This document shows, piece after piece, positions 35,853 to 35,933 of a stretch of 64,000 nt of DNA. The DNA is taken from positions 34,117 to 98,116 of the forward strand of contig CAINQO010000035.1 in NCBI GenBank assembly GCA_903852325.1, given 5' to 3'. The first letter of the stretch is position 1, and each line of letters opens with the position of its first letter. The notes beneath the pieces were generated by a model. It was not told the origin of the DNA, searched no databases, and was given only the letters and a program-made list of their open reading frames with translations. The DNA is from Candidatus Omnitrophota bacterium. GTDB lineage: Bacteria > Omnitrophota > Gorgyraeia > Gygaellales > Profunditerraquicolaceae. A program made the translations under genes and the position numbers.

Positions 35853-35933
35853 ATGAACCCCGCGCCTTCTGATTATTCGACGATTAAAGTCAGCCGGTTT
35901 TGTAAATTAAATAAGAAAGAAGGTGCGGGGTGA
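35853..35933 (+). promoter_or_regulatory. Leader element copy D with a 26-codon uORF ([26 protein letters not shown]) upstream of purA
   Basis: The 5' arm CCCCGCGCCTTCT (35858..35870) is complementary (one G.U) to AAGAAGGTGCGGGG (35917..35930). The uORF starts in the 5' arm, and its TGA (35931..35933) overlaps the purA GTG (35930). Confidence 0.6.

Follow-up and report, generated by a model that had tools for sequence, protein, structure and literature searches.

A Repeated Element at Gene Starts in Omnitrophota

We analyzed a 64,000-nucleotide stretch of a contig assigned to a Candidatus Omnitrophota bacterium (hereafter the window), in which a short leader recurs in front of purA and several other genes. 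Six full copies of this element lie in the window, together with a short variant copy and three remnants of the right arm (Table 1). The original prediction had described the same arrangement ahead of unrelated genes in at least six copies, and this holds: there are 12 arm matches in the window compared to 2.45 ± 1.43 in shuffled sequences, with none of 100 shuffles reaching 12. An inverted-repeat finder returns the arm pairs 16819/16881, 22245/22296, 28096/28233, and 53643/53704. The downstream genes are also as originally named, with Pfam identifying the GT4 glycosyltransferase, a PfkB kinase (hldE-like), trigger factor (tig), and PurA, and with ScpA confirmed separately. No tRNA or tmRNA was found in the window.

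The element is non-coding and 46–140 nt long, depending on the copy. It consists of two arms, CCCCGCACCTTCT and AGAAGGTGCGGGG, whose pairing is perfect or near-perfect, separated by an interior of 20–114 nt that contains a degenerate internal copy of the right arm and an AT-rich stretch. These 13-nt arms are the core of TIRs of 13–22 bp, with the left end reading CCCCGCACCTTCT(nnnTATTCA) and the right end (TGAATAnnn)AGAAGGTGCGGGG; the extension to approximately 22 nt (TATTCA / TGAATA) is imperfect. The arms are much more conserved than the interiors. The right arm contributes both a Shine–Dalgarno (SD) sequence and the first base of a GTG or ATG start codon. Its segment AGAAGGTG, located 6 nt 5′ of the new start, matches the canonical SD AGGAGGTG at seven of eight bases. 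In every non-tandem copy in the window, the right arm ends on the G or A of the start codon of a long ORF, and the element is the source of four of the window's nine GTG starts. We found no conserved ORF within the element, as frames and stops differ among copies. In a promoter scan, the purA copy gave a single weak match to the consensus and the scpA copy gave none, and no promoter or IHF site is evident.

Table 1. Copies, remnants, and target sites of the putative MITE in the window.
Feature	Position	Strand	Remarks
Short variant-arm copy, 46 nt, TCCCGCCCTTCCT / GGAAGGGTTGGGA	14616..14661	+	Start of 697-aa GT4/GT9 gene
Right-arm-like remnant GAGGGGCGGG	16806..16815	+	Directly left of relic ATGA at GT4 start
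Copy at GT4 glycosyltransferase start (GTG 16892)	16820..16892	+	Flanks ATGA / TGCG, non-identical
Copy at PfkB-kinase (hldE-like) gene	22246..22315	+	Former ATGA stop/start overlap with ORF 21277..22245
Right-arm remnant TAAGGTGCGGGA, then TG, at kdsD (SIS+CBS)	24888..24899	+	Acts as SD and start of kdsD
Long copy, 140 nt, at trigger factor GTG	28107..28246	+	Between lptB stop TAA 28104-28106 and tig
Unoccupied target site GTGAA	32824..32828	+	Stop/start overlap of ORFs 31241..32827 and 32824..34569
Left TSD copy TGAA at purA	35854..35857	+	Right copy at 35931-35934
Copy at purA start codon (originally flagged)	35858..35930	+	purA by Pfam
Variant right-arm remnant AGGAAGGGCGGG	53551..53562	+	Ahead of relic ATGAA at scpA
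First tandem copy upstream of scpA	53568..53639	+	Left arm decayed, CCCTGCATTTTCT, four C>T
Second tandem copy, at scpA	53644..53716	+	A53716 is base 1 of scpA ATG

The purA copy illustrates the arrangement. Its left TIR (35858-35870) reads CCCCGCGCCTTCT and its right TIR (35918-35930) reads AGAAGGTGCGGGG, with the final G serving as base 1 of the purA GTG; A35853 and the left TGAA are the relic of the original purA ATG. At the hldE-like gene, the left TGA (22243-22245) is the stop codon of the upstream ORF and G22315 begins the GTG. The original placement of the upstream arm directly 3′ of a stop codon is correct for the copies at 22246 and 28107 only, and a gap of 17–93 nt intervenes elsewhere. 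The second scpA copy is flanked by TGAA at 53640-53643 and 53717-53720, the former being common to both tandem copies. An apparent inverted interior in this copy was dropped because its orientation is not resolvable by alignment scoring. At kdsD, the left arm and interior are gone.

Several start codons have been hit more than once. The remnant at 16806-16815 marks a prior insertion at the GT4 start codon, and that at 53551-53562 marks a prior hit at the scpA start. Another right-arm remnant, at 14603-14613, precedes the short variant copy.

The Element Is Flanked by a Duplicated Target Site

For counts of flanks and arms, we used 35 usable copies from the window and approximately 20 MAGs, nearly all labelled Omnitrophota. 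Identical 4-nt flanks are present in 27 of the 35: TGAA in 24 copies, and TGGA (L067), TGAG (L033), and TCAA (L093) in one copy each. The remaining eight copies have non-identical flanks. Each of the three variant flanks is duplicated on both sides, so the flanks vary together with the target and lie outside the element. The original prediction overlooked both this flanking TGAA direct repeat and the near-constant ATGAA ahead of the left arm, and both are decisive.

The base preceding the left target-site duplication (TSD) is A in 23 of 27 copies. Across five orthologous junctions, the insertion point is constant, lying directly 3′ of the (A)TGAA of a start codon or of an ATGA stop/start overlap. 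The neighbor is a real ORF start codon for 30 of the 35 copies, another copy in tandem for three, and something else for two; start codons make up only approximately 40–50% of the harmless TGAA sites in the window. The left TGA(A) retains either the relic of the old ATG or the stop codon of the upstream gene, while the right repeat ends in a G (sometimes A) that, followed by the TG of the duplication, restores a GTG or ATG start with the reading frame intact. The interior is oriented the same way relative to the gene in a ratio of 26:1, with 11 copies ambiguous; only the L040 copy is clearly reversed.

A different origin for this pattern would be recombination or gene conversion among RBS regions, which could have copied a 5′ repeat, comparable to the RBS- and ATG-bearing Neisseria REP2 or Borrelia IR repeats, from gene to gene without transposition. 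Here the right end of the element, TAAGAAAGAAGG, does resemble the native RBS region of the clade, TAAGAAAGGGA; the same start codons have been hit repeatedly and carry tandem copies, and no transposase partner was found among the sequences examined. However, the 4-nt flank is exactly duplicated and varies with the target, which implies integration at a staggered cut, and the insertion point is the same to the base at unrelated genes. The 13–22 bp TIRs also count against such a repeat, and we give this origin only a slight chance. The duplicated variant flanks likewise rule out an IS91-like or IS200/605-like insertion lacking a TSD.

The relic ATG raises the further question of whether the element is translated, since it opens a reading frame (MNPAPS...KKEGAG) to a TGA overlapping the GTG and could thereby specify a leader peptide, a coupling cassette, or a micro-protein. 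This frame ends exactly at the GTGA overlap in eight copies, including those at 35858 and 53644 in the window (26 codons each), and in 13 of 35 copies no stop interrupts it within the element, compared to 8 and 0 for the other two frames. Element lengths nevertheless show no frame preference (15:13:7 modulo 3), the ORF ends within the element at varied places in most copies, and the interior "peptide" is unconserved. Moreover, older copies, such as those of window purA, L134, and L139, retain only a decayed form of the old SD ahead of the relic ATG, and in several copies a left start codon is missing altogether. A coding role is therefore extremely unlikely.

Orthologous Sites Are Mostly Empty

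We compared five orthologous junctions (tig, hldE, kdsD, purA, and ORF 32824), which are empty in most relatives and filled in few. The empty sites hold a single copy of the target. At purA, the junction is empty in 26 of 29 orthologs and reads ..TAAaggagaaaATGAATATAGTT; at hldE, 23 of 25 relatives are empty at the ATGA overlap, reading ..gaaaagatATGAAGAAtct. Approximately 30 of 34 kdsD junctions are empty, and a full copy occupies the orthologous start in L173. Most of the 78 lptB-tig orthologs are empty and read TAAGAAAGGGAnnnnATGAAAAC. The L140 ortholog, filled at the same ATGAA, reads AAGAAAGGGAAAAATGAA[element]TGAAGACT, and the L199 ortholog is filled at that ATGAA by a variant subfamily. 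The converse is seen at ORF 32824, where L040 alone is filled, with duplicated TGAA flanks, and the site is empty in the window and in over 20 of the 28 recovered relatives.

The copies also differ in density and in subfamily between relatives. There are approximately eight copies in 790 kb of tig-syntenic relatives versus seven to eight in this 64 kb. The GT4 site is filled in the L065 ortholog too, and the L065 ortholog of the 697-aa GT4/GT9 gene carries a standard copy instead of the variant subfamily. By eye, two L065 copies are near-identical to each other over 69 nt but differ from the orthologous copy in the window. At scpA, the window copy at 53568-53639 and L034 5292-5362 have a derived CCCT in common. 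Arms have been lost in orthologous copies, namely L173 at hldE, the window at kdsD, and both window 53568 and L034 5292 at scpA. As a general rule, "left arms decay more" was dropped, as a hand tally gives approximately 24 versus 22 substitutions and the pattern is true only at particular orthologous pairs.

Taken with the anatomy, these comparisons give an element below approximately 300 bp without its own coding capacity, bearing TIRs and a TSD, polymorphic for presence or absence, and dispersed in copies with lineage-specific amplification, the features by which a MITE is recognized. The repeated leader is thus very probably a small non-coding MITE of Omnitrophota that inserts in the start codons of unrelated housekeeping genes. 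The original fallback reading, a portable start-site cassette, was right and can be refined to a MITE inserting at the xTGAA of start codons and remaking the SD and start.

The search for an autonomous partner in the sequences examined was negative: TIR pairs 0.4–4 kb apart enclose only housekeeping genes and are separate MITEs. MAGs often break at IS elements. Among the matches listed (80 of 120 stretches) from a scan of viral contigs with a 14-mer of the arm, each stretch had a single match, with no paired arms and no IS. As no autonomous element was found, it is solely the TIRs, the TSD, and the presence/absence pattern that point to mobilization by a transposase. The sequence GGAAGGTGCG, which may resemble the IS5 terminal repeat, has the opposite polarity relative to the element end and was not used.

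The Arms Form a Strong Predicted Helix without a Clear Sign of Selection on Pairing

RNA folding places the SD and start codon inside a helix of 14–15 bp, with minimum free energies of −30 to −48 kcal/mol and z = −2.6 to −5.9. The predicted unpaired probability of the RBS and start is 0.14 in the element versus approximately 0.74 at native sites. The original claim that, upon transcription of the full element, a helix would sequester the SD and start thus stands as a prediction, and the helix would likely affect translation.

The original prediction went further and proposed an undescribed cis-acting translational control RNA, in which the helix would be under selection to sense temperature, to respond to a ligand or protein, to offer ribosomes a standby site, or to enforce coupling, with any mobile origin secondary. 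Its argument was compensatory change between the arms. The second scpA copy, with arms TCCCGCTCCTTCT / AGAAGGAGCGGGA, does deviate from consensus at two positions per side to give two compensated pairs. The GT4 copy has a single compensated change and the purA copy a G·U pair as described, but the "extra AT" at GT4 is in fact a T>A / A>T substitution. Across the copies, 416 of 455 arm cells are Watson–Crick. Of the changed cells (13 core pairs), 32 are non-compensated and seven are compensated, so the excess of compensation whose lack had been named as grounds for refutation was not found. The percentage paired within copies is 83.8, versus 83.6 between shuffled copies, and 212 of 500 shuffles reach the observed value.

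Other measures lean toward a selected RNA. Pairs changed on both sides number six versus 3.8 after shuffling, a value reached by 20 of 500 shuffles, and the covariation score is 0.128 versus 0.108 (reached by two of 500), although this is mostly attributable to one terminal pair, which changes from C-G to T-A in four copies. Covariation between TIR ends across subfamilies is normal for transposons, because one transposase must bind both ends. On the sense strand, G·U mispairs outnumber A·C mispairs by 21 to 8. We rejected this as a sign of RNA-level selection because of a confounder: C>T decay of the C-rich left arm yields G·U, and the right arm is constrained by its SD role. The orientation bias, the conservation of the internal arm copy, and the finding that 22 of 32 copies have an upstream stop 0–23 nt away from the left arm would also fit a regulatory leader. 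Against this reading, the great majority of close relatives lack the element at the orthologous junction, the copies are bounded by TSDs, the downstream genes are unrelated in function, and pairing has been lost in orthologous copies. A selected cis-regulatory RNA is highly unlikely given these results.

Rfam, which the original prediction had proposed searching, gave no matches at the gathering score in the window; two copies searched by E-value returned only chance-level hairpins (E = 0.24-0.75). Overall, we see no clear sign of selection on the helix or of a conserved regulator, and the RNA hairpin is probably a by-product of the inverted ends of the transposon.

Comparison to Known Repeats and Leaders

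The element resembles the Correia (CREE/NEMIS) repeats of Neisseria and the ERIC/IRU repeats of enterobacteria in being short, non-coding, and multi-copy, with TIRs and a short TSD. It also shares with them a location at gene boundaries, co-transcription with neighbors, and TIRs that fold as long mRNA hairpins able to affect expression; Correia hairpins are cut by RNase III (PMC10969869). It differs in its target, which is TGAA within start codons rather than TA, and in remaking the SD and start of the gene hit, in its strong orientation bias, and in having no evident promoter or IHF site. In a 2024 review of prokaryotic MITE functions, the terms "start codon", "ribosome", and "Shine" are absent from the text (PMC10969869).

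Also comparable are the Neisseria REP2 repeats and the Borrelia plasmid IR sequences, which lie directly 5′ of many unrelated genes with an RBS and ATG fused to the ORF and contain internal stem-loops (PMC3184786). Like the element, they supply an RBS and start to unrelated genes. Unlike it, REP2 carries a promoter and has no TIRs and no reported TSD (PMC3184786), and it is for the element that TIRs, a TSD, and both empty and filled orthologous sites are demonstrated. The TIRs and TSD, along with the promoter scan described above, argue against a REP2-type repeat. The Rickettsia palindromic elements (RPE) are mobile palindromic repeats whose insertion is compatible with the function of the gene hit, so that they persist in or at genes (PMC10969869). 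These lie in frame within coding sequence and are translated, whereas the element is placed precisely on the start codon and takes the place of the initiation signals; an in-frame N-terminal extension is possible only in the L040 copy.

Two further classes of small repeat were considered and ruled out. REP/BIME sequences, mobilized by RAYT, are extragenic palindromes of 20–40 nt with a conserved 5′ GTAG-type tetranucleotide and no TSD; the arms here are 20–114 nt apart, lack a GTAG head, and are accompanied by a TSD. PATE derived from IS200/IS605 have a distinct subterminal hairpin at each end and insert 3′ of a fixed tetranucleotide without a TSD. The ends of the present element are mutual inverted copies, and the flanking 4-mer co-varies on both sides (TGGA/TGGA).

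SD-sequestering leaders, such as the ROSE and fourU thermometers, and translational coupling through RNA structure, as in the long-range pairing between MS2 coat and replicase and in the E. coli IF3-L35-L20 operon, involve fixed, gene-specific, conserved structures. The predicted RNA of the element would work on the same principle, the SD and start being held by an anti-SD-like strand (CACCTTCT, versus CACCUCCU in 16S) in a helix that ribosomes arriving from upstream could open. It differs in that the helix comes from transposon ends, is missing in most orthologs, and is decaying.

Proposed Mechanism and Implications

The element integrates with a 4-bp TSD, almost always TGAA, and the TGAA chosen nearly always lies within a start codon (A|TGAA) or an ATGA/GTGA stop-start overlap. 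Both flanking genes would stay active after insertion, and since neither is inactivated, a start codon would be a safe site in a 93% coding genome. Upon co-transcription with upstream sequence, the repeats would form a helix of 13–20 bp burying the new RBS, presumably as a side effect of their being inverted. This helix is probably tolerated because ribosomes open it, either when terminating at the upstream stop or when starting at the relic ATG. The start-site bias would probably derive from target recognition reaching beyond TGAA. Start-codon targeting, regeneration of the RBS and start, and the 26:1 orientation bias are all unusual traits for a MITE, and the last is atypical for a DDE-type element whose ends are symmetric.

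A stronger version of this proposal, which we regard as possible but rather unlikely, is that the integration machinery recognizes translation-initiation regions, that is, an SD-like purine tract followed by (A/G)TGAA, mimicked by the right end of the element. On this view, replacing the RBS and start would be what the element is designed for, and dozens of housekeeping genes would come to share a uniform SD, a GTG start, and a strong anti-SD helix, the last of which would tie their translation to ribosomes coming from upstream as a form of enforced coupling. Repeated and tandem hits on one start codon would follow from such recognition. Selection would maintain the 26:1 orientation bias, with the internal arm copy serving as a decoy in that orientation only. 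If this were true, gene starts and ATGA overlaps would be a safe haven for the element in streamlined genomes.

As a start-codon MITE, the element reveals how selfish DNA can colonize a 93% coding genome via start codons and 4-nt stop/start overlaps, carrying with it the signals that keep both neighbors working, with a stop at its left end and an SD and start base at its right. It accounts for a fraction of this lineage's GTG starts and uniform RBSs. It also urges caution in screens based on structure or covariation, as transposon ends can mimic compensated SD-sequestering helices before unrelated genes. If start-site targeting is mechanistic, the cognate transposase would lend itself to directing insertions to RBSs. 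For the Omnitrophota, the hairpins imposed by this element may be raw material for new translational coupling and regulation.

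Copies of the Element in the Window

Copies of the element were located by reading the sequence and by systematic location of its arms. The arm motif CCCCGCACCTTCT (two mismatches at most) matches 12 times in the window compared to 2.45 ± 1.43 times in shuffled sequence, where none of 100 shuffles reached 12, and an inverted-repeat finder recovered the arm pairs independently. Together with six full copies, these results establish that the recurring paired-arm leader element of the original prediction is real. The genes named there as GT4, PfkB/hldE-like kinase, trigger factor, and PurA were confirmed by Pfam, and ScpA was confirmed separately. 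The left arm, described as directly following the preceding stop codon, does so at 22246 and 28107 and not at the other copies, and the extra AT reported in the arms at the GT4 gene is in fact a compensated substitution. Outside tandems, each copy's right arm ends on the initial nucleotide of a long ORF's start codon. All 61 called genes of the window lie on the + strand, with a coding density of ~93%; nine begin with GTG, and the element supplies four of these nine starts.

Copies and remnants of the element in the window
Feature	Window positions
Full copy	16820-16892
Full copy	22246-22315
Full copy	28107-28246
Full copy	35858-35930
Full copy	53568-53639
Full copy	53644-53716
Short copy, variant-arm subfamily	14616-14661
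Right-arm remnants	24888-24899; 16806-16815; 53551-53562

In one public assembly, an ORF of 35 aa is annotated (record coordinates 9897-10004, window 53612-53719) wholly inside the tandem copies, sharing 4 nt with the start of scpA; this ORF is probably an artefact of gene calling produced by the element. A separate low-complexity inverted repeat of ~130 nt at 31092-31222 (CTAAATCCTAAACTCTAAAC … GTTTAGGATTTAGAGTTTAG), unrelated to the element, takes up the space from ORF 29937..31076 to ORF 31241..32827 and resembles another intergenic insert of the hairpin type.

The Element Is a MITE

The original prediction missed a direct repeat, TGAA, around nearly every copy: ATGAA precedes the left arm and TGAA follows the right arm. 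Among the 35 copies usable for this comparison, drawn from both the window and related contigs, 27 had identical 4-nt flanks, comprising TGAA in 24 copies and TGGA, TGAG, and TCAA in one copy each (related loci L067, L033, and L093, respectively), with an A before the left repeat in 23 of the 27. Because this flank varies with the site and is duplicated, it is a target-site duplication (TSD) and not element sequence. The terminal inverted repeats (TIRs) span 13 bp, with an imperfect extension to ~22 bp, and most copies conserve, in their interior, a degenerate version of the right arm. Two copies in one genome (L065) are near-identical to each other.

We compared orthologous junctions in relatives. 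Metagenomes scanned for the trigger factor of the window yielded 80 syntenic loci (790 kb in total, 58–86% identity). The lptB-tig junction is empty in most relatives (...atgTAAGAAAGGGAnnnnATGAAAACnGAAGTT) and filled in L140 (AAGAAAGGGAAAAATGAA[CCCCGCACCTTCT...AGAAGGTGCGGGG]TGAAGACTGAGGTT), where the native Shine–Dalgarno sequence (SD) and ATGAA are kept on the left, TGAA is doubled, and the gene now starts with GTG; in L199, the variant-arm subfamily is inserted at the same point. At hldE, 23 of 25 relatives are empty (...gaaaagatATGAAGAA), with the upstream stop TGA overlapping the ATG, and in the window and L173 the element sits between two TGA(A). The kdsD junction, also at an ATGA overlap, is empty in ~30 relatives, contains a full copy in L173, and retains the right arm only in the window. 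For purA, 26 of 29 sites are empty (...TAAaggagaaaATGAATATAGTT), with a standard copy in the window and variant copies in L134 and L139. Finally, the site at ORF 32824 is empty in the window and >20 relatives (GGACGTGAAAAG or ggacATGAAAAG) and filled, with TGAA duplicated, in L040 alone.

An HMM of the element detected only ~8 copies across the relatives' 790 kb compared to 7–8 in the 64-kb window, and among relatives syntenic over the full 20 kb, several lack the element altogether. The short non-coding copies, TIRs, 4-bp TSD, orthologous presence and absence, lineage-specific amplification, and near-identical copies within one genome identify the element as a MITE, one with start codons as its target, where it restores both the RBS and the start. 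This bears out and sharpens the "portable start-site cassette" that had been offered as an alternative to a regulatory RNA. One MITE feature is missing, as no autonomous partner element was found in the window and the related sequence examined.

In a single exact-pattern scan with one genome per species, paired + / - arm matches occurred almost solely in MAGs labelled Candidatus Omnitrophota. Two other MAGs with typical copies, L093 and L074, are labelled Planctomycetaceae and Planctomycetia, reflecting either mis-binning or mis-labelling, or else a wider host range. Three of the matching loci, L034, L040, and L065, are syntenic with the window at 70–97% amino-acid identity, which places the window in an Omnitrophota bacterium. 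An identical ScpA protein is present on a 612-kb contig and on three contigs whose 175 nt before scpA match the window exactly. The same arms also form short hairpin-only derivatives: these, with stems of 13–14 bp, loops of 10–20 nt, and no interior, occur in L014 (5477-5520) and L102 (6294-6331) at AT-rich sites and not at start codons.

At least two further hairpin repeat families, unrelated to the element, lie in the lptB-tig junctions of relatives, within the 150 nt upstream of tig: 'gtgagtgag..cataacttatgg..ccataagttat..gaactcatacccgc' and 'tgatttcgcc..ggcgaaatcatccccgc..gcggggat' (junctions in L123, L133, L138, L153, L163, and L176; also L127, L150, L155, L158, and L164). In this clade, several small elements have made gene boundaries a hot spot of insertion. 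The more distant relatives L195, L198, and L200 have short tandem or low-complexity runs in the intergenic gaps upstream of tig and purA (e.g., 'ataaccaaa..', 'aaaagtcaaaagt..').

Insertion at Start Codons

Of the 35 copies, 30 directly adjoin the start codon of an actual gene, and three more sit next to a neighboring copy within a tandem whose end is at a start codon; the remaining two, in L093 (TSD TCAA) and L179, lie elsewhere. Since start codons make up only ~40–50% of the window TGAA sites at which insertion would break no gene, the bias is real, and it requires either extended target recognition or selection. The same start codons have been hit repeatedly, as shown by tandem copies in the window and at L034 and L019, and right-arm remnants stand directly left of the relic ATGAA, the old start, in the window and at both L065 copies.

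The construction of the element should render insertion harmless. At ATGA-overlap targets (9 copies), the left TGA keeps the upstream stop, and the start codon is rebuilt from the terminal G/A and the duplicated TG. Six nucleotides upstream of this start, AGAAGGTG shares 7 of 8 bases with the canonical SD AGGAGGTG established from the 16S 3' tail. The interior has the same orientation relative to the gene in 26 copies, is ambiguous in 11, and is reversed in one. In this sole clearly reversed copy (L040, 3631-3704), the complement of the canonical left end forms the gene's SD and start base. In this copy alone, the relic ATG shares the gene's reading frame without an intervening stop and might extend the protein by 26 aa at its N-terminus.

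Pairing of the Arms and Likely Effect on Translation

Folded alone, the leaders are predicted to form a 14–15 bp helix (MFE −30 to −48 kcal/mol, z −2.6 to −5.9) that locks the SD and start codon, as originally proposed. Selection on this pairing was assessed in an arm alignment of 29 copies against a null in which right arms were dealt randomly among copies (500 shuffles). The fraction of paired cells was 83.8% compared to 83.6% in shuffles, 212 of which reached the observed value. Over 13 core pairs, both partners had changed in 7 cells and a single partner, leaving a wobble, in 18, and a further 14 cells were broken, revealing no excess over non-compensatory changes of the compensatory ones that the regulatory-RNA interpretation anticipated. 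The covariation score was 0.128 compared to 0.108 in shuffles (2 of 500 reached it), a modest excess that can stem from relatedness and that derives mostly from the terminal pair, C-G to T-A in four copies; end-to-end covariation across subfamilies is expected for transposon TIRs. An excess of G.U over A.C on the sense strand (21 versus 8), considered as a sign of RNA-level selection, is confounded, since the C-rich left arm decays by C>T.

The helix is not retained in orthologous copies. The right arm at hldE in L173 has decayed into a better SD (AAGGAG), and the left arm at kdsD in the window is lost; the copies at window 53568 and L034 5292 have a derived CCCT in common, with further left-arm changes since. 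No Rfam family matched the element. A regulatory RNA selected for pairing is therefore not supported.

The mean equilibrium unpaired probability of the right arm and start is 0.14 at filled sites compared to ~0.74 in ten native empty tig leaders, so insertion of the MITE should lower initiation wherever the helix stays closed. In 9 copies, 0–1 nt separate the upstream stop from the left arm; in 13 others, the distance is 4–23 nt. At a free-standing ATGAA target, the relic ATG could start a short ORF across the left arm, and such an ORF finishes exactly at the GTGA overlap in 8 copies. Ribosomes terminating or translating at the left arm would melt it, a plausible explanation for why essential genes tolerate the element, which could impose translational coupling. 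A maintained leader-peptide system was rejected because conservation is lacking both in the reading frame (length mod 3 = 15:13:7) and in the old SD.

Relation to Known Elements

By membership, the closest known elements are bacterial MITEs such as Correia and ERIC, with which the element has TIRs, a TSD, and mRNA hairpins in common; these have TA as their target and reconstruct no translation start (PMC10969869). By behavior, the closest are the Neisseria REP2 and Borrelia IR repeats, which bring an RBS and an ATG that is joined to the ORF but have neither TIRs nor a TSD (PMC3184786). Rickettsia RPEs insert in frame, which allows genes to tolerate them inside (PMC10969869). Full-text searches of the open-access literature yielded no account of any MITE with start codons as its target and an RBS and start to donate, nor of MITEs in Omnitrophota. 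A start-codon-targeting MITE would gain further interest if its start-site targeting proves to be mechanistic.
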